DNA from: a virus
Taxonomy: Duplodnaviria; Heunggongvirae; Uroviricota; Caudoviricetes
IMG/VR virus record: IMGVR_UViG_3300013307_000015
DNA: 64,000 bases
Strand: one strand, 5' to 3'
Shown here one piece after another: positions 1,940 through 57,335 of this stretch. Below the pieces are notes generated by a model. The model worked only from the letters and a program-made list of their open reading frames with translations. It did not search any database and had not been told where the DNA came from. The translations under genes were made by a program, and so were the position numbers. The stretch's first letter is position 1. Each line of letters opens with the position of its first letter.

Positions 1940-3262
1940 ATGACAACAACCTTTCGTAAAACAAGTGCAATTGTCTGGACGAAAGACCCTTCGCCGATTA
2001 GCACGCGTGCTGCTTCGGCAGTGGCGTTTGCCAGCGATTTAAATTTGATGGTGCGTAACGTTCAAGGTTACGCATTTGAGTCCCCGCAAGCGAATGTGGC
2101 TTTGCGCAACATCCAAGGCTATGCGTTTGAATCGGTCAAGCAGTCGTTGAATCTCTCTGTTACGGGAAATCAAGCGCTGTACGCGCTGATCAACAACAAC
2201 AGCTTGTACCAGAGCTGGAGTGCAAGTAACAGTACGCTGGGTGCACCAGTCGTTGATAACAGCGTGACGAACTGTAACACCAGAGTCAATTTGGCAGCCA
2301 AGACGGCAAGCGGGTACAGCGGCAACATCAATCTGTACTACAACCGGCGTCCTATTTCTGATGCGATTAACACCAGTGTCAGTTTGGGAACCATCGCCAG
2401 TAACACAGACGTCTGGACGTTGCTGCCGACCATCAACAGTAAGTACGGGACTAACCTCACGACAAGCGATGTGCTCAACGCATCGGTGAGTGCTGGTGCG
2501 ACCACGGTAATGCTGACGGTGGCAAGCGGCAGTTACATGTTCGTTCCGGGTTCGGTGGTGGCTGCTGGTCTGGTGAAGGATCTGGCTTCGGTTACACCGA
2601 GTAACCTGCTGTTTGGTTTCGACAATGCAGCAGGCAATGGTCCGAAGGCAACGAAAACGGTGATGTTGCTGCACTTCGAAGGCGGCAGCATTGTTGACAC
2701 GTCAGGTAACTTCACTCCGACGATTGTGAGTACCGCTGCGCTGACGACGCAGCAAGCGAAGTTTGGTACTCAGTGCCTGAGTTTGCCAGCCTCTGGATCT
2801 GCTCTGAAGTTCGCAGACGATCCGCGACTGCGCTTTACGAGCGACTGCACGCTTGAAGCCTGGGTGATGTCGACTAACAATGCTCAGAACGGCGTGTTGT
2901 TTGGTAAAGATCCGTCCTCTGGCAGCCCGCCTACGGAACTCCAGTATTTCAATGGTTCTTGGCGCGTGTGGCTTGATTCTGCCACTGTGAACATCTCAGC
3001 AACTTCCGGCGTTGCAGTCAACACCTGGATGCATATCGCGTTGGTGCGCTACAGTGGTGTCTGGTATCTGTATCAAAACGGTGTGCTGCTTGGTCAGTTC
3101 ACCGGTGGCACCTTCGGCAATAACACCAACCCCTTCTACGTGGGTAACTGGGGTGGCTTGGCGAATGAATTCCAGACTTACGTGGATGAAGTTCGGATCA
3201 GTAATGTGGCGCGCTACACGGCTCCCTTTACGCCTCCGGCAACTGCGTTTGCATTGGATTGA
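1940..3262 (+). CDS. tail fibre protein, LamG-domain paralog
   Basis: RBS GGAG before ATG. C-terminal NTWMHIALVRYSGVWYLYQNGVLLG...DEVRIS is near-identical to the module in the previous gene. Confidence 0.6.
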   Translation: MTTTFRKTSAIVWTKDPSPISTRAASAVAFASDLNLMVRNVQGYAFESPQANVALRNIQGYAFESVKQSLNLSVTGNQALYALINNNSLYQSWSASNSTLGAPVVDNSVTNCNTRVNLAAKTASGYSGNINLYYNRRPISDAINTSVSLGTIASNTDVWTLLPTINSKYGTNLTTSDVLNASVSAGATTVMLTVASGSYMFVPGSVVAAGLVKDLASVTPSNLLFGFDNAAGNGPKATKTVMLLHFEGGSIVDTSGNFTPTIVSTAALTTQQAKFGTQCLSLPASGSALKFADDPRLRFTSDCTLEAWVMSTNNAQNGVLFGKDPSSGSPPTELQYFNGSWRVWLDSATVNISATSGVAVNTWMHIALVRYSGVWYLYQNGVLLGQFTGGTFGNNTNPFYVGNWGGLANEFQTYVDEVRISNVARYTAPFTPPATAFALD

Positions 3263-3351: not shown

Positions 3352-3894
3352 ATGTCAAAGATTGACTCCACCAAGTCAGCCATCGACAACCTGCTCGTTC
3401 TGGTGAATGCGGCCAACACCGGCCAAACGCTCCTGAACACGCAGGTCTCCGCTGGCACTCCGGCAGCTCAAACCGCTGACGGCCAAGGTCGCAACACCAA
3501 CGTCGTGCTGTCGGCCATCGCTGGTCACGGCTACACCGGTTCGCAGACGTTCACCTACACGCGTCGCGGTCTGAACGACTCGGTGCTCAGCCCGGTCGAC
3601 AGCTACACGGCCACCGTCGGCGTCACCGCCGCTTCGCTGCTCACCGCACTGGCCTCGCAACTGGGCCTGGTCGCAAGCGAACTGCATCTCGAAGATGCAG
3701 CCAATCCGGGCACGACGCTGTCGGGCGCGATCAGCAACAGCCCGGCCACGATCAACATCGTGTCGGCTGCCGGCTCGCTGCTGTACGTCGACGGCTCGAC
3801 CCAGGGCATCACGATGACCTGGAACCAGCCGACGGTTGACCTCGCAACGGCTACGCCGAACACCGCACTGAGCGGCTTCGACGCAGCAAGCTAA
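3352..3894 (+). CDS. hypothetical protein (paralog of 4016-4474; possible fibre-associated)
   Basis: RBS AAGGA. N-terminal MSKIDSTKSAIDNLL and GxTGSQTF motif shared with the downstream paralog. Confidence 0.55.
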   Translation: MSKIDSTKSAIDNLLVLVNAANTGQTLLNTQVSAGTPAAQTADGQGRNTNVVLSAIAGHGYTGSQTFTYTRRGLNDSVLSPVDSYTATVGVTAASLLTALASQLGLVASELHLEDAANPGTTLSGAISNSPATINIVSAAGSLLYVDGSTQGITMTWNQPTVDLATATPNTALSGFDAAS

Positions 3895-3926
3895 TCCAGA
3901 GCGCTTCGGCGCAATGGTTTAGGGAA

Positions 3927-3950
3927 CAGCCGGGGAGCAATCCTCGGCTG
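3927..3950 (+). terminator. hairpin terminator followed by TTTTTATGCCGTCACC box (second TTTATGCC copy 28 bp later)
   Basis: cagccgggg..cctcggctg stem then T-run. Confidence 0.5.
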
Positions 3951-4015
3951 TTTTTATGCCGTCACCGCAAACGCCGCAATTTTATGCCCTTCCCCATCCT
4001 GCATTTGGACCTGAC

Positions 4016-4474
4016 ATGAAAATCGATCCGACGAAATCTGCATTGCAAAACCTTCTGGCGTTGGTGGATGCAGCCAACCCCAATGGACCGACCAACGCTG
4101 CACAGGTGACATACACGAACCTGCAAGCTGCGACCCTTGAAGGCGATGCCGCCGCTAACACCTCGGTGGAACTCGACGGTGTAAGCAATCAAGGCTTCAC
4201 GGGTTCCCAGACCTTCTATTACGGTCGTCTTGCCTTGGCAGACGAAGCCGCCAGCCCGACAGGTTCGGTGAACATTCCCAACGGCTCCACCAGCGATCAA
4301 ATTCTGGCGCTGGTCGCCACCTACTATGGTTTCATTCCTGCTGAGATCTCTTGGCAGAGTGTGCCGGTCGCTCCGGGTACGTTGCCGGGGGACACCACCG
4401 CAACAGTACAGTGCAGTGGCTCGCTGGTGTATCTGGATGGCACCGCGACAGTCAACCTTCACTGGGAAGCATAA
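4016..4474 (+). CDS. hypothetical protein (paralog of 3352-3894)
   Basis: MKIDPTKSALQNLLALVDAAN resembles the N-terminus of the previous gene. Start taken at ATG 4016 rather than track ATG 3956. Confidence 0.5.
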   Translation: MKIDPTKSALQNLLALVDAANPNGPTNAAQVTYTNLQAATLEGDAAANTSVELDGVSNQGFTGSQTFYYGRLALADEAASPTGSVNIPNGSTSDQILALVATYYGFIPAEISWQSVPVAPGTLPGDTTATVQCSGSLVYLDGTATVNLHWEA

Positions 4475-4495
4475 GTGAGCTAAGGAAACTCAAAA

Positions 4496-4963
4496 ATGCA
4501 GATGAACCTACCATACCCCTATTTGGGTTTGAGCGCGCAGAGGTTGACTGACTGGATCAATTCTGACAACAGTACGAGTTATCAGTTGGGGGTGGACTTC
4601 ACGTTCAGTGGTCCGGCTCTTTACACTGATAGTCTGGGGCGAAACACCAAGGTAACGATGCAGCCGGTGGATTCGACGAAGTATGCTTCGACCGACATTC
4701 ACTACTGGAGACTGCCGCTGACGATTTTGAACAACTTGCCGCAAGGCAATGTCAACCCGGTTCCGATTTCTCAGTTGCCGTTTTCCATCCATGGAATTCT
4801 GGATGCGATCAACACCGCACTGGGATTGAACCTGACGCCCGACGAAGTACCGGACCAGACGTTCACCACCGAGCTTGCTTCCTATCCGCTGCACATCAAC
4901 GATGCCGTGAGTCTTGCTTGGATTGATTCGGACTTTCAATTCCAACCGCAGTTCATGTTTTAA
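4496..4963 (+). CDS. hypothetical protein
   Basis: RBS AAGGAAA 8 nt upstream; ORF-track frame. Confidence 0.5.
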   Translation: MQMNLPYPYLGLSAQRLTDWINSDNSTSYQLGVDFTFSGPALYTDSLGRNTKVTMQPVDSTKYASTDIHYWRLPLTILNNLPQGNVNPVPISQLPFSIHGILDAINTALGLNLTPDEVPDQTFTTELASYPLHINDAVSLAWIDSDFQFQPQFMF

Positions 4964-4974
4964 CGGTTGCGTGA

Positions 4975-4996
4975 GCCTAGGGGAAACCCCCTAGGC
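4975..4996 (+). terminator. hairpin gcctagggg-aaac-cccctaggc followed by TTTATGCCC box
   Basis: perfect 9-bp stem, GNRA-like loop. Confidence 0.5.
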
Positions 4997-5053
4997 TTTA
5001 TGCCCGAAAAGTGAGAATTTACGTAGAGCATCGATAATGTAGATTCTAGAATC

Positions 5054-5097
5054 TTTCAGTTACATATAACCTCATCGAGTTGGTAAGCCTATCAACT
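5054..5097 (+). promoter_or_regulatory. conserved intergenic element TTCAGTTACATATAACC + hairpin GAGTTGgtaagcctatCAACTC (copy 1 of 4)
   Basis: Repeated at 60853-60894, 29235-29280 and 43972-44008, with compensatory base changes in the stem. Confidence 0.45.
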
Positions 5098-5135
5098 CTT
5101 TCTCCATTTACATTCGAACAAACTAGGAGCTAATC

Positions 5136-5309
5136 ATGGTTGACTACGCAAACAACAACTATTCCGCAGGCAAGAAAACCTTCAAGGCAAAGGCATTGCG
5201 CTTCATTGGCGTGACGCTTATCTTCGCACTGCTGGGTGGCACGATCGTCGCGGCTGACCACGTCGGTCACTACCTGCAAACGCACCGCACCGGTTACACG
5301 GGCAACTGA
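5136..5309 (+). CDS. small membrane protein (57 aa), not in ORF track
   Basis: Strong RBS AGGAG 7 nt before ATG; ACATTCGAA leader motif; one hydrophobic helix IGVTLIFALLGGTIVAA. Confidence 0.55.
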   Translation: MVDYANNNYSAGKKTFKAKALRFIGVTLIFALLGGTIVAADHVGHYLQTHRTGYTGN

Positions 5310-5319
5310 GGAATCGGCG

Positions 5320-5700
5320 ATGGAACAACAGAAACAAGACTGGATGTCGTTTCTTGCAGACTTCGTTGATCTCGTCAAAAACTTGAACCGTAAGTTTGGC
5401 GACAACGAAATCACTGAACAAGAAATACTCGATTCAGTCGGAGAGAAGTTCGTCGATGCGCACAACTACGCGCAAGTGTCAGAGCTTCATCCGAAGATGG
5501 TTCATGCTTGGTCGCAATTGCAGGAATCGATCCAGAAGATCAAACTCATTCGCGCCAAGAAGATGACGCAGCGCCAGCGTTATCTGTACCACATGCGGGA
5601 ACTCTTCCAAGACCCCGCCAAAGTCTGGGATACCAGCATTCCGTGGTCAACGCGCTGGTGGTACAACCACTGCGTGGAGTTGCAAGTAAGGCCGCATTAA
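5320..5700 (+). CDS. hypothetical protein
   Basis: RBS GAGG before ATG 5320 (MEQQKQDW). The track ORF's upstream extension overlaps the previous small gene. Confidence 0.5.
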   Translation: MEQQKQDWMSFLADFVDLVKNLNRKFGDNEITEQEILDSVGEKFVDAHNYAQVSELHPKMVHAWSQLQESIQKIKLIRAKKMTQRQRYLYHMRELFQDPAKVWDTSIPWSTRWWYNHCVELQVRPH

Positions 5701-5732
5701 ACAGTATCCAACATTCGAATAACGAGGAATTC

Positions 5733-5942
5733 ATGAGAATCAAAGAAATGGTCGTGATCGATAACGACACGCGAGAAGTTTTCGTCGATGGCATCAAGTG
5801 GCAGCCGTCGCCGGAGTCGTACATGCATCTGGCTCGCTTCGGGACGGGTCCGTATAGCGAACGTCCCATTGAGCCGCAACGCATTCATCCCGGCATCGCC
5901 ATGTACCGTACGGTTTCCAACATGGGGGTGCGTCGTGCTTAA
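5733..5942 (+). CDS. hypothetical protein (69 aa)
   Basis: RBS ACGAGGAA; ACATTCGAA leader at 5711; start MRIKEM. Confidence 0.45.
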   Translation: MRIKEMVVIDNDTREVFVDGIKWQPSPESYMHLARFGTGPYSERPIEPQRIHPGIAMYRTVSNMGVRRA

Positions 5943-6204
5943 GATCTTCATCCTCTTCGGCCTGTTCGCATGGTACAAGAGCAGCTGGATGATCGCGCGC
6001 TACCTTACGCGCCGGGTGATGTTCAAACACGTAATTCGTGCAGACATGGCTGTTGCGTTTGCACAGATGACCGGAAGGAGAGAATTCATCGTCCAGAATC
6101 AGAGGAATCTCATTCTGCCGATCATCGCAAGTTGGTTGTTGTTCATCGCGCTCCTGTATCTGGGAGCGGCATTTACAGTCCAGTATCTTGGGCTGACGTT
6201 GTAA
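5935..6204 (+). CDS. small membrane protein (2 predicted TM helices)
   Basis: GTG start after GGGGG; LKIFILFGLFAWY and IIASWLLFIALLYLGAAF hydrophobic segments. Confidence 0.4.
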   Translation: MLKIFILFGLFAWYKSSWMIARYLTRRVMFKHVIRADMAVAFAQMTGRREFIVQNQRNLILPIIASWLLFIALLYLGAAFTVQYLGLTL

Positions 6205-6322
6205 GAAAGGCGTCGACACCTATAAGTCCTACAAGTCACACGCCTTCACGGGGCTCGACTATTCGAGACAGTCGGGCTAATCACTCTTAAAAAAAGAAGA
6301 ACTGTGAAGTTTGGGAGCTATC

Positions 6323-6637
6323 ATGCGAAGCTTATATCGCAGACACATCAAAATCTCGCTCTTGGAAGCGAGTCAAGCTGAAAGGGCCCATGGTTGGGCC
6401 AGCACGGAAGACGGAACGGGTACCGAAGTTCGCCACTACTTTGTGTGCGACCAAGAACGCTTTCTCCATCACCTGAAACAACCGGGGATTGCGTCCTTGC
6501 GCTTGCAGCTTGAAAAGCTCGGCGTCCATCCGAAAAGCATCACGATCAAGCGGGCCTACAACACGCTCACGTACAAGAACCTGTCGTATCGGCGGGAGCG
6601 CGCTGTGAATCAATACGAAATGCCGGTCGCAGCCTGA
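6323..6637 (+). CDS. hypothetical protein
   Basis: RBS GGGAG before ATG 6323. Confidence 0.45.
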   Translation: MRSLYRRHIKISLLEASQAERAHGWASTEDGTGTEVRHYFVCDQERFLHHLKQPGIASLRLQLEKLGVHPKSITIKRAYNTLTYKNLSYRRERAVNQYEMPVAA

Positions 6638-6737
6638 TCGCCGGAGGAGCCGTGGAAACGGGGGTAAGCGGTTCCTCTTCTCTGTCCCCCGGAAGTACCT
6701 TAAACATTTTTCGCTCAATCATCTTTGGAGATAACAA

Positions 6738-14635: not shown

Positions 14636-15007
14636 ATGGAAGAAGACGAGGTCAGAAGACCGACTCACGATCTGTTTTGTCGGCAGTGTATCGCAGACAG
14701 TCCCAACACGCATGTATCGTGGTTTCTGATGGCCTCATTCGCGTACTACTTCCTGAACGAGTCCCTCATTACCGATGCGTTGTACGATGAGATTTACCAG
14801 TGGCTGGAGAAGAACATCGAACAAATCGATCACGTCCACAAACATCTCATCGAAAAGGACATGTTCTCAATTGGCAGTGCGTACTACTTGAGAGAATATC
14901 CGAAGATCATTCAGGTATCGACGCACAACTTGCTTGATAACTTGCGCTTAACAGCAGCACCGCAACCGAGGGATTTATGGAAAAGGAAAACCTGCCCTAC
15001 GCAGTAG
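14636..15007 (+). CDS. hypothetical protein (weak resemblance to LigA adenylation-domain N-terminal helix: AYYFLNESLITDALYDEIY)
   Basis: RBS ACGGAG before ATG 14636. Confidence 0.45.
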   Translation: MEEDEVRRPTHDLFCRQCIADSPNTHVSWFLMASFAYYFLNESLITDALYDEIYQWLEKNIEQIDHVHKHLIEKDMFSIGSAYYLREYPKIIQVSTHNLLDNLRLTAAPQPRDLWKRKTCPTQ

Positions 15008-15213
15008 TGCAGCGCTTGCGACTGGTTGACATCTTGCTCGACCAGCAGGGCTTTATCAATCGCGGAGTATTGATGGAATACTTCGGGATTTCGATGCCAG
15101 CCGCGAGCAACGATCTCGGACTGTACAAAGAGATCGCTCCGAACAACATGACGTACGACTTGTCGAATAAGGCGTACGTGAGAACCGAAACCTTTCAACG
15201 GGTCTGGAAATGA
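14977..15213 (+). CDS. small HTH (HTH_11/DeoR-WYL-type) DNA-binding protein
   Basis: VQRLRLVDILLDQQGFINRGVLMEYFGISMPAASNDL fits HTH_11 pattern; overlaps neighbours by ATGA. Confidence 0.45.
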   Translation: MEKENLPYAVVQRLRLVDILLDQQGFINRGVLMEYFGISMPAASNDLGLYKEIAPNNMTYDLSNKAYVRTETFQRVWK

Positions 15214-15821
15214 AATTCATCTTCAACGATCGCAATCGAGCGATTTGCGATGTGTTTAGCCACGCATTGCAAGGTACTCTGCCCAATCTCGAAGTACGGC
15301 ATTGCAACTTCGAAGCCATTTCGAAGGACGATTACAAGATCCTTTTTACCCCCGGTAATTCGTACGGACAGATGACCGGGGGTTTCGATTTGGCAGTACG
15401 TAACGTCTGGCCGGCTGCTGAAGCCTATGTTCAAATGGCAATTAGCGAGTCCCGAAATGGGATGTTGGCGGTTGGTGATTACGTGATGGTTGGCTTGCAT
15501 GCGGCTATGTCTTTGATTCCGCAAAAGCGCCTCATCTACACGCCGACCATGCGCATCCCGATGGTGATTGCCGGTACGGAAAACGTCTACTGGGCGTATC
15601 GCGCTGCCTTCCAAGCATTAGAAGGAGCGGCGCGCGGGATGATCTTCACTGATGAAGACGCTGTGCTCATCCCTGCTTTTGGGACGAGTGCCGGTCACAT
15701 GGACCCGCTCAAAGCTGCGATGCAGTGCAGGCTGGCATACGAGCACGTCCATCGTCCGCCAGTCGAAGTAACGAGCCAGCAGATGTTTGCTGACCATCAA
15801 GCCATTGCTCAATGGATCTGA
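15210..15821 (+). CDS. macro-domain protein (ADP-ribose binding/hydrolase, MacroD-like)
   Basis: ILFTPGNSYGQMTGGFDLAV resembles NAANxxLxGGGGVDGAI. LIPAFGTSAGHMDP resembles the macro-domain AFPAISTGVYGYP motif. Confidence 0.55.
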   Translation: MKFIFNDRNRAICDVFSHALQGTLPNLEVRHCNFEAISKDDYKILFTPGNSYGQMTGGFDLAVRNVWPAAEAYVQMAISESRNGMLAVGDYVMVGLHAAMSLIPQKRLIYTPTMRIPMVIAGTENVYWAYRAAFQALEGAARGMIFTDEDAVLIPAFGTSAGHMDPLKAAMQCRLAYEHVHRPPVEVTSQQMFADHQAIAQWI

Positions 15822-15822
15822 T

Positions 15823-16116
15823 ATGAAATTTGCCATTGCACTGGAGAAGGACGATCCAGCTAGGGCCGACATCATCACGCCCGTGTACGGCGTGACGATT
15901 CCCGATCTGCCCGGTTGCCACTCGTGGGGCGATACCGTCGAGCAGGCCCTCGAAAACTCGAAGGAAGCCATCTTCGAGCATGTGCAGATCCTGCATCAGT
16001 TCGACGAGCAGTTCAGCCTCAAGCAGCAACCCATCGCCAAGCACCGGCTCAATCCGGAATTTGCCAAGGCAGAGTGGCATGAGGTCGAAGTCGATCTGTC
16101 TCAATTCGGACGGTAA
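15823..16116 (+). CDS. HicB-like antitoxin-fold protein (UPF0150), orphan
   Basis: MKFAIALEKDDPARADIITPVYGVTIPDLPGCHSWGDTVEQALENSKEAI matches the classic HicB N-domain; no adjacent HicA. Confidence 0.65.
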   Translation: MKFAIALEKDDPARADIITPVYGVTIPDLPGCHSWGDTVEQALENSKEAIFEHVQILHQFDEQFSLKQQPIAKHRLNPEFAKAEWHEVEVDLSQFGR

Positions 16117-16437: not shown

Positions 16438-17529
16438 ATGGAACAAAACTATCTGAATACGATACAAGACGTGCTGGATAACGGCACATGGCAGAAAAAC
16501 GAACGCACGGGGGAATTGTGCTGTACCCTCGACGGCGCAATCACGCGCTTTGACATCAGTCAAGCGTTCACGTGTGCGGTCACGACGAAGAAGCTCGCGT
16601 GGAAGTCGATCACGGGTGAATTCTGCGGCTTCCTGCGTGGCGTAACGAGCGCTGCTGACTTCCGCTCATTCGGCTCGAAGGTGTGGGACCAGAACGCCAA
16701 CGAGAACGCTCAGTGGCTCGCCAATGCCTTCCGTAAAGGCGAAGATGACCTGGGCGACGTGTATGGTGCGCAATGGCGCAGATGGCCGGCATATAAGTTC
16801 TTTGACTGTCATCCCTCGTCCGGCGTCATCAAGAAGATCGAAGCCGATGGTTGGGTGTATCGCGGCCAAGTTGGCGAAAACATGTCGCGTGATGCCGACG
16901 AATTCAAAACCGAAGGGTATCTGTGGTCGAAGGAAGTCGACCAACTCGGCGAGTGCATCAAGAAGTTGATCCTCAATCCGTCCGATCGCCGGATTCTCTT
17001 CCATGGCTGGAATCCGGCCAAGCTCGACGAGATCGCACTGCCGGCGTGTCACTTGCTGTACCAGTTCCTGCCGAACGTCACCAAGGGCGAACTGTCGCTC
17101 GCCATCTATATCCGCAGCTGGGACACCTTCCTTGGCGGCCCTTTCAACATCGCTGAAGGCGGCCTGCTGCTCGAACTCGTCTCGCGTCTGACGGGCTTTA
17201 AGCCCAAGCGTGTGACGATCTTCTCGGGCGACACCCACGTGTACGAAAATCATCTGCCCATGGTCGAGGAACAGCTGAGTCGTAGCCCGCTTGGTCCGCC
17301 GCAACTGGATATCAATGATCGTATTCCGTATTTCAACGCTACGCTCACTCGCTTCAAAGACGAGCATGGCGAAGAACTGCACGATCTTGATCCGTTGGAA
17401 TTTGACAAACGGGCACGGGAACACGCAATCTCGGTTGCGATCGAATGGCTCGACAAAGTCGAACCGACGGACTTTACGCTGCCCGACTACATCCATCATC
17501 CGGAACTGAAAGCACCCATGGCGGTGTAG
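16438..17529 (+). CDS. thyA: thymidylate synthase ThyA-family (dUMP-specific; TS or dUMP hydroxymethylase), with insertions
   Basis: ERTG, VYGAQWRRWP, SDRRILFHGWNP, PACHLLYQF, YIRSWDTFLGGPFNIAE (Asn retained), GDTHVYENH, C-terminal KAPMAV. Confidence 0.85.
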   Translation: MEQNYLNTIQDVLDNGTWQKNERTGELCCTLDGAITRFDISQAFTCAVTTKKLAWKSITGEFCGFLRGVTSAADFRSFGSKVWDQNANENAQWLANAFRKGEDDLGDVYGAQWRRWPAYKFFDCHPSSGVIKKIEADGWVYRGQVGENMSRDADEFKTEGYLWSKEVDQLGECIKKLILNPSDRRILFHGWNPAKLDEIALPACHLLYQFLPNVTKGELSLAIYIRSWDTFLGGPFNIAEGGLLLELVSRLTGFKPKRVTIFSGDTHVYENHLPMVEEQLSRSPLGPPQLDINDRIPYFNATLTRFKDEHGEELHDLDPLEFDKRAREHAISVAIEWLDKVEPTDFTLPDYIHHPELKAPMAV

Positions 17530-17862: not shown

Positions 17863-17991
17863 TCCAACAAGGGGGTTCCGAAAGGAACCCCTGATATGCT
17901 GTTAAGTGGTAGAACTTGGTATGTGTTTTTAATATGCCAAGGCATGGTTTGTAGCTGTATGTTCGAAGTGCAACCAAAGGAAAGACAAGAA

Positions 17992-18555
17992 ATGGCAAAC
18001 GACGCTAAGAAAGCCGCTCCGGCAAATAAAGAAACCGCAATGGGTTCGGCGCTGAAAGATGCACTGGCTAAGAGCGGGGGTCTGAAAACCGTACACACGA
18101 AACCGACTTCGAAGAAGAAAGAAAAGCCGTACAAACAAACCTACGAAGAAGGCACTGCACAAAGCGCAGAACAGACCAAAGCCGCATCTGCTGAACCGCA
18201 GAAGGTCAAGAAGGGTGAAGCACCGGATGCGAAGAAAGCCATCACGACGGTGGCTCGCAAGATCGCCAGGAAGGTGAGCACCAAGAAGCCCAACGCTCCG
18301 GGTGTTGCCAAACCGACCAACGCTCCGGCTCCCGAGAACAAGCCGGCTGAAAAGCCGTACTCGCCGTCGGTGGTCAAGGCGTACAAGGAGCAACTCACGC
18401 ATGAGCTGAAAGCGCTCATCCGTAAGGCTGACGATGCGGGTCTGCTCATCCACATCCCGATCGTCAATGGTCGTCCGTTCGTAAAGTTCCACGACAAGGC
18501 CACCTACAAGCCCAAACAACCAGTCAAGCAAGAACAACAGCAAAAGACGGCATAA
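17992..18555 (+). CDS. Lys/Ala/Pro-rich basic protein (histone H1-like, possible DNA-binding)
   Basis: RBS AAGGAAAG; KKAAPANKETA...KKKEKPYK low-complexity basic repeats. Confidence 0.5.
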   Translation: MANDAKKAAPANKETAMGSALKDALAKSGGLKTVHTKPTSKKKEKPYKQTYEEGTAQSAEQTKAASAEPQKVKKGEAPDAKKAITTVARKIARKVSTKKPNAPGVAKPTNAPAPENKPAEKPYSPSVVKAYKEQLTHELKALIRKADDAGLLIHIPIVNGRPFVKFHDKATYKPKQPVKQEQQQKTA

Positions 18556-20311: not shown

Positions 20312-20365
20312 TGATACCCGTACTCTCGAACTACGTGCAAACCCTCGTGCGTACGTAGCTTTTTG

Positions 20366-20395
20366 GAAGGGGACTTCGGTCCCCTTCTTTTTTTG
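20366..20395 (+). terminator. rho-independent terminator (UUCG loop + T7)
   Basis: gaaggggac-ttcg-gtccccttc TTTTTTT. Confidence 0.7.
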
Positions 20396-21971: not shown

Positions 21972-22535
21972 ATGCGGGTAATCGGAAACGTGACTGCGTA
22001 TTACTCGAAAGATGATTACCCCAGTCATCACTACCTCTGTAACTTCCGAGTGAAGAACGTAGACTTCACCTCGATGGAACAGATGATGATGTTCAGCAAG
22101 GCGATGCTCTTTGGTGACAAAGAGGCCGCTCACGAGATCATGTCCACGCAGAACTGTCAAGCGCAGAAGATGATTGGACGGCGTGTCAAAGGTCTTAGGG
22201 GCGGGAAGTGGGACGACGAAGACAGGAAACTCTGGGACGAGAAGTGTGACCAGATTGTCTTCATCGGTAATCGCGAGAAGTATCGCCAGAATCGTGTTCT
22301 CTTATCGTTGCTTTTGTTGACAGGTGACACGATTCTGGTTGAAGCGTCTGTACGCGATCCGATCTGGGGCTGTGGCTTGGATGAGCGAGACGATCGCATC
22401 GCTGATCCGAAGAATTGGACCGGTCAGAATAGACACGGTCAGGTTCAGATGCGGGTAAGGCAATACTTCAAGGAACATCCGGAGGCAAAGAAGTCGGCCG
22501 ATAATGCTGTGCTCTTTAACTTCGATAAGGACTAG
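21972..22535 (+). CDS. NADAR (YbiA-like, DUF1768) domain protein
   Basis: YYSKDDYPSHHYLCNF, FTSMEQMMMFSKAML and LLLTGDTILVEASVRDPIWGCG match the NADAR signature blocks. Confidence 0.65.
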   Translation: MRVIGNVTAYYSKDDYPSHHYLCNFRVKNVDFTSMEQMMMFSKAMLFGDKEAAHEIMSTQNCQAQKMIGRRVKGLRGGKWDDEDRKLWDEKCDQIVFIGNREKYRQNRVLLSLLLLTGDTILVEASVRDPIWGCGLDERDDRIADPKNWTGQNRHGQVQMRVRQYFKEHPEAKKSADNAVLFNFDKD

Positions 22536-22537
22536 AA

Positions 22538-23050
22538 GTGGAACCTTGCAGCTGCGGTTTTGTGAACTATCCGGGGGCTTGCTACTGTGGTAAGTGTGGC
22601 AGACCTTTTGTGGAAAAGCCTCAACGGTTTTACTGTCGGCAATGCGCGTGTGAGCGTAAGCAGAAGGTCTGTCAGAAGTGCGGCGGTGAGTGCTTCACGC
22701 CTACGCATGACTGGGAAGAACCGAGGTTGCCTGACATCGACAAGATTCGCGCGCTTGCCAAAGAGATCGGCTACGCTATTGGCGTTCATGGCACGCTTGA
22801 GCGAGACTTGGATGTGATTGCGGCTCCGTGGACCGAAGAAGCACTCAAGTACAACTGGCGAGAAGTGATGGACTACATCGCCAAGGGAATGAACGGTCGG
22901 GTAGTAGAGACTAGCTGGAAGCCTTTTGGCAGACGAGCGTGCACGATTCTCGTCGACGGCTGGTACAAGGACATCGACTTGTCGGTGTGCCCGATTCTTA
23001 TTCAGAAAGGAATAGAAGAAGATGAAACATCTGGTGGTGTATCACAATAG
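22538..23050 (+). CDS. zinc-ribbon protein (Cys-rich N-terminus)
   Basis: GTG start; CSCG..CYCGKCG..CRQCAC..CQKCGGEC. Confidence 0.45.
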   Translation: MEPCSCGFVNYPGACYCGKCGRPFVEKPQRFYCRQCACERKQKVCQKCGGECFTPTHDWEEPRLPDIDKIRALAKEIGYAIGVHGTLERDLDVIAAPWTEEALKYNWREVMDYIAKGMNGRVVETSWKPFGRRACTILVDGWYKDIDLSVCPILIQKGIEEDETSGGVSQ

Positions 23051-23987
23051 CTGCATGGACGGCTTCGTGTCAGCATGGATTGTTTATCATTCGCTGATTC
23101 GTCGGGGAGTTGTGGAGGACGACATCGATTTCCTCGGTTCGGATTATAACGATCCGATTCCGGACATGACGGGTAAGAACGTCTACATCGTCGACTTCTC
23201 GTGGTACGACGTCGAAGGGCTGCTTAAGGAAGTCGCGAAAGCCATCGAAGTGAAGATGCTCGACCACCACAAGGAAACGTACAAGGTCTGGAAGGATGTG
23301 GTACTTCCGGGCAACATGACGTACGTGTTCGAGTTGCCGAAGTCAGGCGTGGGAGTGGTGTGGGATTATTTCCATCCGATCATCAAGCCTGTAATGCCGC
23401 CGCTTCTGGCACACATTCAGGATCGTGATCTGTGGAAATTCAACATCCAAGGATCGCGTCAGGTGCATGCTTTCTTGAAGTCCAAAGGCTTCTTGCTGCG
23501 TGAACCGAATCGTGAGCTTTTTTTGAACAAGCTCAAAGAGTTTGGTGCGCAATACGCTTGGCTTTCTGCTGATGCGCTGAAACCGATTTACACAATCGGT
23601 GAGTCCATCATGCAGGCAGAGCTTGTGCTGATCGAGTCGATTCTGGAGCGCAACATGGCCATGGCAGAGTTCACCTGCTATGGTCTGAAAGACGACGATT
23701 CGGGCGACATGGAGCCCAAGCAACGCTACGCCATCCCGGTGGCGGAAATGCCGTATGAACTCGCCTCCGAAGCGGGTAACCTCATGGCGCACAACGCGCC
23801 CTTCTCGATCACCTACGAGACGGAATGGGCACTGGGTAAGCGCAAGTTCTCGATTCGTAGTCGTAAAGGCTACGGAGTCGATGTCGGTGAGATTGCCAGA
23901 GCCATGGGCGGTGGCGGGCATGAAAACTCGGCTGGCTGGTACGGTTCGATCTGGCTGGACTTTCCGTTCCGTATTACCCGCAAGTGA
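23022..23987 (+). CDS. DHH/DHHA1 family phosphoesterase (NrnA/RecJ-like nanoRNase)
   Basis: HNSCMDG (motif I), IVDFSW (II), LDHHKE (III), GGGGHENSAGW (DHHA1 GGGH). Confidence 0.75.
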   Translation: MKHLVVYHNSCMDGFVSAWIVYHSLIRRGVVEDDIDFLGSDYNDPIPDMTGKNVYIVDFSWYDVEGLLKEVAKAIEVKMLDHHKETYKVWKDVVLPGNMTYVFELPKSGVGVVWDYFHPIIKPVMPPLLAHIQDRDLWKFNIQGSRQVHAFLKSKGFLLREPNRELFLNKLKEFGAQYAWLSADALKPIYTIGESIMQAELVLIESILERNMAMAEFTCYGLKDDDSGDMEPKQRYAIPVAEMPYELASEAGNLMAHNAPFSITYETEWALGKRKFSIRSRKGYGVDVGEIARAMGGGGHENSAGWYGSIWLDFPFRITRK

Positions 23988-56535: not shown

Positions 56536-56796
56536 ATGAGTGATGTGATCCGCTATAAAGACGTAGTCGTCAGTAAAGGCTCAGACCTTTACAAAGCGAT
56601 CGAAGACAAGAAACCTCTGGAAGCGGCTCGCATTTACTGGGAGTGTGAAGTCGAATTCCAAAAGTACTGGAAAGACACGTCTTGGGGTAAGCCTGCTGGT
56701 CTGGCAGAAGCTGAACTCAAGAAGGTGCAAGATCGCATCGAGGAAGAGCGGCTGAACGAAGAACTCCGGAAGAAAGGGGCTAGGACATTGAAATGA
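56536..56796 (+). CDS. hypothetical protein
   Basis: RBS TGAGGAAAAA. Confidence 0.5.
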   Translation: MSDVIRYKDVVVSKGSDLYKAIEDKKPLEAARIYWECEVEFQKYWKDTSWGKPAGLAEAELKKVQDRIEEERLNEELRKKGARTLK

Positions 56797-57335
56797 ATCT
56801 CGTGCTCGTTGAACACAAGTCGTCCAGCTACGGTCCGCGTACCTTCCACAACGCGAAGTCAGCCGATCTGACTCTGGCTATTGCGATGGATTTCACGACC
56901 TTCGGCGAGAAGTTGACGCATAAAGCCGCAGGGGATGATTACCTTGCGATTCCCTACGAGATGGATTCCGTCACAGCAGCACGACTTCTGTATCGGGAAC
57001 TCTTTCGTCGTAAAGCCAAGGTGTTGAATGTAGCTGGAAACGGTATCTATACATTCGCCAAGCATGGACACCAGCAGCATTCGATCAACATGCATTTGTA
57101 CTTCATCCTTGGCCTGACCAACAAACACTACCCGATCAAGAAGATCGTCTCAGGCGGTCAGACAGGGATGGACATAGCTGGAGGCATCGTCGGATGCAAG
57201 CTCGGCATACCGGTCGAAATGACGTTTCCTAAGGGCTTTCGGCAACGCGATGAGCACGGTGTGGATAGTGAACACACTGAAGCGGAAATCCGACAGCAAG
57301 TGCTCAACGGCATGAACCAGTTGGAAACTGTTTGA
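56793..57335 (+). CDS. SLOG-superfamily protein (YpsA/MoCo-carrier-like Rossmann fold)
   Basis: SGGQTGMDIAGGIVGCKLGIPVEMTFPKG matches the SGGQxGxD...GIP..G motif of MoCo-carrier/YpsA SLOG proteins. Confidence 0.5.
   Translation: MNLVLVEHKSSSYGPRTFHNAKSADLTLAIAMDFTTFGEKLTHKAAGDDYLAIPYEMDSVTAARLLYRELFRRKAKVLNVAGNGIYTFAKHGHQQHSINMHLYFILGLTNKHYPIKKIVSGGQTGMDIAGGIVGCKLGIPVEMTFPKGFRQRDEHGVDSEHTEAEIRQQVLNGMNQLETV

Follow-up and report, generated by a model that had tools for sequence, protein, structure and literature searches.

A Macro2-type macrodomain protein of a phiKZ-like jumbo phage: its class, its genomic setting and its candidate substrates

Does the small macrodomain gene at positions 15210-15821 (+ strand) of a 64,000-nucleotide stretch of tailed-phage DNA (IMG/VR record IMGVR_UViG_3300013307_000015; "the window" below) serve to undo the ADP-ribosylation of DNA bases by DarT toxins, or does it act on something else? 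The original prediction, made from the sequence alone, took its product for a MacroD-type, DarG-like eraser and coupled it to a NADAR gene some 6 kb downstream, as counter-defence against ADP-ribosyltransferase (ART)-based immunity or as a means of handling NAD+ breakdown products. By profile and predicted structure the protein is a Macro2-type macrodomain, not MacroD-type or DarG-like, and we see about an even chance that it hydrolyses low-molecular-weight ADP-ribose derivatives during infection. Macro and NADAR are among the commonest genes of the NAD+/ADP-ribose network in large phages, and the counter-defence argument built on the two together is generic, already published, and adds little as first stated. 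What the present analysis adds is the reassignment to the Macro2 class, the separation from DarG and its phage counterpart AdfM, and leads in the cassette of flanking genes. A single Macro2 protein has been characterised across all organisms, and no viral one has, yet conservation of the family extends from phiKZ-like jumbo phages as far as the giant viruses of eukaryotes.

The macrodomain and its ADP-ribose site

The predicted open reading frame (ORF) was recovered with exactly the same ends, opening with ATG and encoding 203 residues, and both of the motifs first remarked on in it are present, the glycine-rich loop PGNSYGQMTGGFDLAVR at residues 48-64 and the distal motif PAFGTSAGHMDP at residues 155-166. 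Ten metagenomic contigs, the longest of 245 kb, encode an identical protein, and 15 close homologues (41-80% identity) have in common 43 invariant columns and the N-terminus MK[FLVI]I. When the family profile was searched against a database of 1.84 billion cluster representatives, 2,613 were matched at E-values of 1e-3 or less and 1,726 at 1e-10 or less, nearly all of them stand-alone proteins of ~200 residues. This is a real, selected gene, far beyond a chance ORF. No compositional anomaly was found at the gene, and a scan for sigma-70 promoters around it gave fewer sites than were seen in shuffled sequences.

Because the single sequence scored below the gathering threshold against Pfam Macro_2 (PF14519; 21.5 bits, threshold 27, E-value 1.6e-4, residues 38-128 only), its identification as a macrodomain depends on the family profile and on structure. 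The protein has the three-layer alpha/beta/alpha macro fold (Pfam clan CL0223) and also C-terminal helices as in yeast YMR087W. When the AlphaFold2 model, built on a 15-sequence alignment (predicted local distance difference test score 86, predicted template-modelling score 0.86), was compared with the PDB by Foldseek, the top match was to yeast Ymx7/YMR087W (1njr; E-value 2e-8), followed by coronavirus Mac1, DarG, OiMacroD and YmdB. A profile of 124 diverse relatives matched 1njr with an E-value of 7.9e-23 over nearly its full length, the next macrodomain following at 1e-8 and Mycobacterium tuberculosis DarG at 1.3e-5; PDB chains of MacroD type came lower in the ranking than 1njr, TTHA0132 and DarG. 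The profile search and structure prediction first proposed as a check thus upheld the macrodomain, with its ADP-ribose site intact. The MacroD-type assignment did not hold: the protein had no match to the canonical Pfam Macro family (PF01661) at E<0.1, and its best neighbour by structure and by profile was 1njr. The match to NCBIfam PRK00431 was weak (21.7 bits, cutoff 246). Among the 124 relatives, 95 match Macro_2 and 94 match PF01661 (E<=1e-3).

The Macro2 class is defined by YMR087W (PMC6500376), whose structure 1njr was deposited as an ADP-ribose-1''-monophosphatase; the clade is described as processing Appr-1''-p, the 1''-phosphate of ADP-ribose, and as being without activity in the removal of mono-ADP-ribose (de-MARylation), YMR087W being its only studied member (PMC6397177). 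The yeast and phage proteins share the macro fold, the C-terminal helices and an aligned Asn/Asp pair, but they are only 19-21% identical, differ in length (284 and 203 residues, respectively) and belong to different settings, the one to eukaryotic tRNA splicing and the other to a lytic jumbo phage. With MacroD-type proteins (E. coli YmdB, Oceanobacillus MacroD, human MacroD1/2) the phage protein has in common an N-x6-GG[GV]-x-D loop and two phosphate-binding loops, and its automatic name at JGI is "O-acetyl-ADP-ribose deacetylase".

The roles of the pocket residues follow from alignment to YMR087W and from what is generally known of macrodomains. Asn50 and Asp60 of the N-x6-GG-x-D loop align with Asn80 and Asp90 of YMR087W and are strictly invariant, being present in all 124 relatives, phage and bacterial alike; they form the proposed catalytic pair. 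Asp7, at the adenine-N6 Asp position of macrodomains, is found in 111 of the 124. The loop glycines are almost as constant (G53, G57 and G58 in 123 each, G162 in all 124, G158 in 100), the second glycine loop reads FGTSAG, and the PTMxP strand is invariant across the family. Tyr110 aligns with His145 of YMR087W, at a position that holds Tyr in 63 relatives, His in 34 and other residues in 27 (Tyr 51% and His 27% across the family); Asn80, Asp90 and His145 of YMR087W were reportedly proposed as a catalytic triad by Kumaran and colleagues in 2005. On its sequence the pocket looks competent for ADP-ribose binding and catalysis, with the His-to-Tyr change as the one uncertain point.

Uncharacterised viral orthologues include FLC9 gp267, PhiPA3 gp271, MJ359_280, phiN3 gp176, phiRSL1 ORF054, the macro genes of Gifsy-1 and SEN5, and macro proteins of Mimivirus and Marseillevirus. 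They belong to the same family by hidden Markov model (HMM) score (121-240 bits) and by comparison with BFVD structures (template-modelling score ~0.77), at 26-40% identity, and those in tractable phages (PhiPA3 gp271 and that of Klebsiella phage MJ359) make the substrate question directly testable. The label "tail protein" or "tail fiber protein" recurs in the family; as an annotation (PHROG 14717, MJ359_280, phage Noxifer) we rejected it as a label transferred from prophages whose macro gene lies between tail-fibre genes. In P2-like and Gifsy prophages the gene stands between a tail-fibre gene and its assembly chaperone, and an association with the virion is possible in those temperate phages. 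The macro protein of Salmonella phage SEN5 (positions 3998-4822 of our locus L109) has ~75 extra C-terminal residues.

Genomic context and candidate substrates

To place the gene in context, 18 viral and 80 bacterial loci were compared, together with close relatives of the window. BLAST clustering of neighbouring genes found no conserved neighbour, the largest family being present in 8 of 88 loci, and in Pfam searches of 91 adjacent same-strand genes the commonest family occurred four times, with no ART, DarT, sirtuin, KptA or NADAR among the matches. Within 8-10 kb to either side of the macro gene in ~90 homologous loci, no toxin, ART, DarT or sirtuin partner was found. Since no neighbour family recurs, members of the macro family stand alone and do not belong to toxin-antitoxin or writer-eraser pairs; such an absence of partners is expected of a metabolite-processing enzyme, not of an antitoxin.

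We favour a role on small ADP-ribose (ADPr) molecules because of this lack of an ART partner, the associations with NAD+-related genes and with KptA, and the biochemical precedent of YMR087W. The protein would bind the ADP-ribose moiety; Asn50 and Asp60, with Tyr110 standing in for His145, would position a water molecule, and the group at the 1'' or 2'' position of the distal ribose would be removed. The prime candidate substrate is Appr-1''-p, which would be converted to ADP-ribose and phosphate, and O-acetyl-ADP-ribose or ADP-ribose on terminal phosphates may also be substrates. The enzyme might in this way clear or recycle ADPr by-products, toxins or signals from NAD+-consuming host reactions, such as those of immunity NADases or of KptA-type RNA repair. 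On this account the gene would be an old one, vertically inherited in the phiKZ-like lineage within a nucleotide-metabolism block upstream of the thymidylate synthase ThyA, and in the sub-clade of the window it belongs to one co-directional cluster with a solo Nlig-Ia domain and a CapW/BrxR-type winged-helix (wHTH) protein. The occurrence of SLOG and NADAR genes in the same window favours a role on soluble ADPr, and the main targets of phage Macro and NADAR domains have been argued to be ADPr derivatives of low molecular weight (PMC9503650, PMC7824862). Of the two purposes first suggested for the locus, the handling of NAD+ and ADPr products is the better supported, and counter-defence against DarT is unlikely.

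The KptA association comes from the Klebsiella/Serratia jumbo lineage, where a gene for the RNA 2'-phosphotransferase KptA/Tpt1 (PF01885, 149 bits) lies 1.9 kb upstream of the Macro2 gene (in MJ359, positions 2508-3074 and 4956-5552 of locus L113, respectively). The ADP-ribose cyclic-phosphate by-product of KptA is processed to Appr-1''-p, and the arrangement fits the YMR087W precedent, as a lineage-specific link. Coupling to KptA-dependent RNA repair was rejected as a general explanation, since it holds only in that lineage.

Several points weigh against assigning the enzyme to small ADPr derivatives. The biochemical precedent is one yeast protein at 19-21% identity, and in the literature searched no function has been reported for any viral Macro2-type protein. 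The replacement of His145 by Tyr110 might alter the chemistry, the relatives match PF01661 almost as often as Macro_2 (94 and 95 of 124), and the N-x6-GG-x-D motif is common to MacroD de-MARylases. The association with Nlig-Ia is confined to one sub-clade. As for a source of Appr-1''-p, there is no KptA, 2H phosphoesterase or RNA ligase in the window, which covers ~64 kb of a genome of ~245 kb, and tblastn found no KptA in Burkholderia phage FLC9 or in the orthologue-bearing Pseudomonas phages.

The enzyme could instead be a de-MARylase acting on macromolecules, whether proteins (Asp/Glu-linked ADP-ribose) or the phosphate ends of RNA or DNA, and so counter host ART defences and toxins or erase marks made by the phage's own ARTs. 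We hold this to be possible but unlikely. MacroD-type hydrolases likewise have the N-x6-GG-x-D motif and the two phosphate loops, enzymes of that type reverse ADP-ribosylation at the phosphate ends of RNA and DNA (PMC11833690), ARTs are common in jumbo phages (PMC7824862), and the 94 matches to PF01661 among the relatives point the same way. However, the protein itself is without such a match, there is no ART in the window or beside any of the ~90 homologues, and the sole studied Macro2 member is reported to have no de-MARylating activity (PMC6397177).

Another possibility, which we consider improbable, is that the protein is an anti-signalling enzyme that would cleave an ADPr signal derived from TIR domains or NADases (1''-2' or 1''-3' glycocyclic ADP-ribose, histidine-ADP-ribose (His-ADPR) or an ADPr cyclic phosphate) and thereby silence a Thoeris-like defence. 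Macro domains act on 1'' and 2'' linkages of the distal ribose, degradation of such signals has been predicted in jumbo phages (PMC7824862, PMC9503650), Thoeris II binds His-ADPR through a macro domain, and the macro gene adjoins NAD+-sensor-like and defence-regulator-like genes. Yet the literature searched held no phage macro enzyme with this activity, the known anti-Thoeris factors that we found are sponges, and bacteria widely carry members of the macro family as stand-alone genes in housekeeping-like contexts.

The reading first put forward, a DarG-like eraser of DNA-base ADP-ribosylation that would neutralise DarT together with NADAR, is unlikely for this gene, and we give it very little credence. 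Its nearest counterpart would be AdfM (PhiKZ gp104, PhiPA3 gp108), a DarG2-like macrodomain that removes the ADP-ribose added to DNA by DarT2 (PMC13309987). AdfM and the window protein are both small stand-alone macrodomain proteins of phiKZ-like jumbo phages and predicted ADP-ribose binders, but they belong to different macro classes. BLASTP of the macro protein against PhiPA3 gp108 gave an E-value of 28, and the family HMM scored AdfM at 9.6 bits, compared with 212 for the window protein, 208 for FLC9 gp267, 240 for SEN5_19 and 121 for PhiPA3 gp271. PADLOC returned no DarG match for the macro protein at E<=0.01. In a profile alignment, made on sequence only, to M. tuberculosis DarG, the lysines of the DarG segment "PTkkhWR" fall in an insertion that is absent from the family's "PTMR"; the catalytic lysine of DarG (K80 of TaqDarG, K78 of AdfM) presumably lies in this segment. 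No homologous locus holds a DarT-like partner, and NADAR and the macro gene probably have separate transcripts (see below). Isoelectric point and charge, tried as a proxy for a nucleic-acid substrate, were uninformative, AdfM itself being acidic.

The two types also coexist within single genomes. In PhiPA3 the tblastn match of the macro protein is gp271, a gene distinct from AdfM gp108, and an AdfM-type as well as a Macro2-type protein is encoded both in PhiPA3 and in Klebsiella phage MJ359. PhiPA3 lacking AdfM alone is sensitive to DarTG2 (PMC13309987), though it retains gp271, and the Macro2-type protein is therefore no substitute for AdfM; its conservation alongside a DarG-like AdfM in the same genomes implies a distinct substrate. 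Least probable of all is a non-catalytic reader or sponge that would sequester an ADPr-containing ligand, for although many macrodomains are binders and sponges against nucleotide signals are frequent in phages, Asn50 and Asp60 are invariant across phages and bacteria and the closest solved homologue is an enzyme.

The NADAR gene and its relation to the macro gene

The NADAR gene was found exactly where it had been predicted, as an ORF at 21972-22535 (+ strand, 187 residues) that starts 6,151 bp past the macro stop codon, and its identity is clear (Pfam NADAR 125.5 bits, cutoff 35.1, E-value 3e-36; TIGR02464 117 bits; PADLOC PDC-M42C 4e-37; PDB 8bau E-value 8e-6). By motif-level mapping and alignment to 8bau, the catalytic Glu, Lys and Asp motifs are kept (S-M-E36-Q, K43 at +7 and D129-P-IWG-C-G), with the spacing of E36 and K43 equal to that of E88 and K95 in E. 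coli C7 NADAR. The domain and these motifs are common to the window protein, E. coli YbiA and AdfN, the phage NADARs of T4, Bas32 and Bas60; in contrast to AdfN, the window protein has as its best match the model for YbiA-type riboflavin N-glycosidases (TIGR02464). Every phage NADAR tested removes ADP-ribose from guanine and counteracts DarTG1 (PMC11825919). The window NADAR is plausibly a separate enzyme, a guanine-ADPr N-glycosidase like AdfN, and not a partner of the macro protein. NADAR homologues were present in 698 phage records.

The functional pairing of the two genes, in contrast, found no support. They lie ~13 genes apart with a terminator-like hairpin between the macro block and NADAR (20365-20388, + strand; GGAAGGGGAC-TTCG-GTCCCCTTCT followed by TTTTTTG, a 10-bp stem with six GC pairs and a T-run), which was the best site in an 11-kb scan, although terminator-like sites overall were not enriched over shuffled sequences; transcription of the two genes is probably separate. 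Nor does NADAR accompany the macro family elsewhere: we rejected a linkage because NADAR occurs within 10 kb to either side of the macro gene only in the phage clade of the window and in two of ~80 bacterial loci, both cyanobacterial. The two are separate genes, syntenic within a phiKZ-like clade, and not a functional unit. That one large phage genome should hold both is generic and already on record (PMC9503650, PMC7824862): in DNA viruses, Macro, NADAR, SLOG and Nudix are found together above chance (PMC9503650), and a 2021 overview of jumbo phages suggested that host ADPr signals and toxins are broken down by Macro and NADAR (PMC7824862). A cpYpsA protein of the SLOG family at 56793-57335 (+ strand; PF12694, 40.3 bits, cutoff 26.2) completes a set, Macro/NADAR/SLOG, whose co-occurrence in large DNA viruses is known.

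The conserved neighbour of the window NADAR is not the macro gene but a Cys-rich, zinc-ribbon-like protein of 170 residues (22538-23050, + strand; PHROG 35913), a homologue of which directly follows the FLC9 NADAR (gp235, positions 5515-5937 of locus L115; E-value 9e-9). Its C-terminal half contains GVHGTLERDLDV, which by sequence resembles a pol-beta nucleotidyltransferase motif. Next comes a DHH/DHHA1 phosphoesterase (23022-23987, + strand; PHROG 4771, E-value 3e-64, with weak matches to Pfam DHH and DHHA1). The order NADAR-x-DHH is kept in two relatives of the window (L104 and L105); in FLC9 the DHH gene does not follow the Cys-rich gene.

Flanking genes and phage lineage

Between 13235 and 17529 the genes follow one another closely, with no gap longer than 15 nt. 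Two genes upstream of the macro gene on the same strand is a solo Nlig-Ia, the NAD+-binding domain of NAD-dependent DNA ligase (14636-15007, 123 residues; PF22745, 27.5 bits, cutoff 27), whose orthologues in relatives L104 and L106 score 42.4 and 41.2 bits; being only 123 residues long, it has no ligase module. No Nlig-Ia gene lies beside the macro gene in FLC9, L105, PhiPA3 or MJ359. Solo Nlig-Ia proteins have been recorded in 81 phages and proposed as NAD+ sensors (PMC9503650).

Overlapping this gene by 31 nt is that of a stand-alone wHTH protein of 78 residues (14977-15213, + strand), whose stop codon overlaps the macro start (ATGA), so that the two are coupled in translation. A phmmer search of the PDB matched it to Stenotrophomonas maltophilia CapW (7tb6; E-value 1.2e-12, residues 11-76 against 14-79), with ~45% identity to the wHTH domain of that protein, and also to the CapW/BrxR structures 7tb5, 7qfz, 9c5g and 7t8k; its precomputed family is PF26109 (WHD_BrxR). 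CapW and BrxR, the WYL-domain repressors of CBASS and BREX operons, have the architecture wHTH-WYL-WCX, whereas the window protein, which by its length has no WYL or WCX domain, consists of the DNA-binding domain (DBD) only and is not a full member. Homologues are rare, comprising six database clusters of 65-81 residues, all from this clade, and among 50,697 phage records one 75-residue protein, gp088 of Stenotrophomonas phage Sonora; the BrxR/CapW literature searched made no mention of phage DBD-only copies. Because of the narrow gaps a local operator is unlikely and the protein may act in trans; more speculatively, it might mimic a host defence repressor while being itself non-inducible. It is a separate lead to how phages might hold inducible defence operons off.

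Only 1 nt past the macro stop codon begins a HicB-like antitoxin-domain protein of 97 residues (15823-16116, + strand; Pfam HicB_lk_antitox, 73.5 bits), possibly an orphan antitoxin with apparently just the toxin-binding domain. Its absence from a strain (L006) with a 99% identical macro protein implies that it behaves as mobile cargo, recently gained or lost. Neither the macro, wHTH and HicB-like proteins nor the small proteins that flank them had a match in PADLOC. A fixed wHTH-macro-HicB operon was rejected, since the HicB-like gene is missing from that strain and the wHTH gene from L105 and FLC9.

The four genes from 14636 to 16116 (Nlig-Ia sensor, wHTH, Macro2 hydrolase and HicB-like protein) might nevertheless constitute a compact counter-defence cassette, an idea that we regard as doubtful. 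The wHTH protein, being without the WYL domain that senses single-stranded DNA, would be a non-inducible super-repressor of CBASS- or BREX-type operons, and the Macro2 enzyme would break down an immune signal or a toxin derived from ADPr. Successive genes of the group overlap or adjoin one another and three of the four have defence-related cellular counterparts, but the composition of the cluster varies between close relatives. If the idea were true, the cassette would provide a first viral function for the Macro2 class and, in mimicry of a repressor DBD, an anti-defence strategy.

The window is from a phiKZ-like jumbo phage, and the phage origin first assigned to it is confirmed by an S80 prohead protease, a PhiKZ-type major capsid protein domain and the 245-kb contigs. 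The closest sequenced relative is Burkholderia phage FLC9 (322 kb; 40% identity); megablast with 10 kb around the macro gene found no match in the 50,697 phage records, and the genome is therefore only distantly related to sequenced phages. Relatives with macro proteins of 50-58% identity keep the order thymidylate kinase, S80 protease, macro, ThyA, Y16D and NADAR-x-DHH. ThyA (16438-17529, + strand; Pfam Thymidylat_synt, 242 bits) is the conserved downstream neighbour, following the macro gene in relatives L104, L105 and L106 as well as in FLC9, PhiPA3 (gp271 to gp274) and MJ359 (280 to 282); the Nlig-Ia, wHTH and HicB-like neighbours, by comparison, are specific to the sub-clade of the window. 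The macro-ThyA order is best explained as ancient synteny in a nucleotide-metabolism block. ThyA comes within 0-3 genes after the macro gene in MJ359, PhiPA3 (positions 3872-6700 of locus L110), FLC9 and the clade of the window.

In a near-identical contig (L002, 11229-12320) the thymidylate synthase was called as two proteins of 54 and 282 residues, which could reflect an assembly error or a real frameshift; the gene is intact in L003 and L004. An Eco29kI-type restriction endonuclease gene is inserted in the syntenic block of relative L106 (4059-4985). Hints as to the host point to Xanthomonadales or Burkholderiales: the closest phage is the Burkholderia phage FLC9, the next-best NADAR matches were to Xanthomonas and Stenotrophomonas phages, the wHTH protein is most like S. 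maltophilia CapW and a Stenotrophomonas phage gene, and the GC content of the window is 53%. Past ThyA, positions 17896-18555 (+ strand) encode a Lys/Ala/Pro-rich, low-complexity protein of 219 residues to which no family was assigned, in a region where the AT skew is strong (0.51 at 18000-18399).

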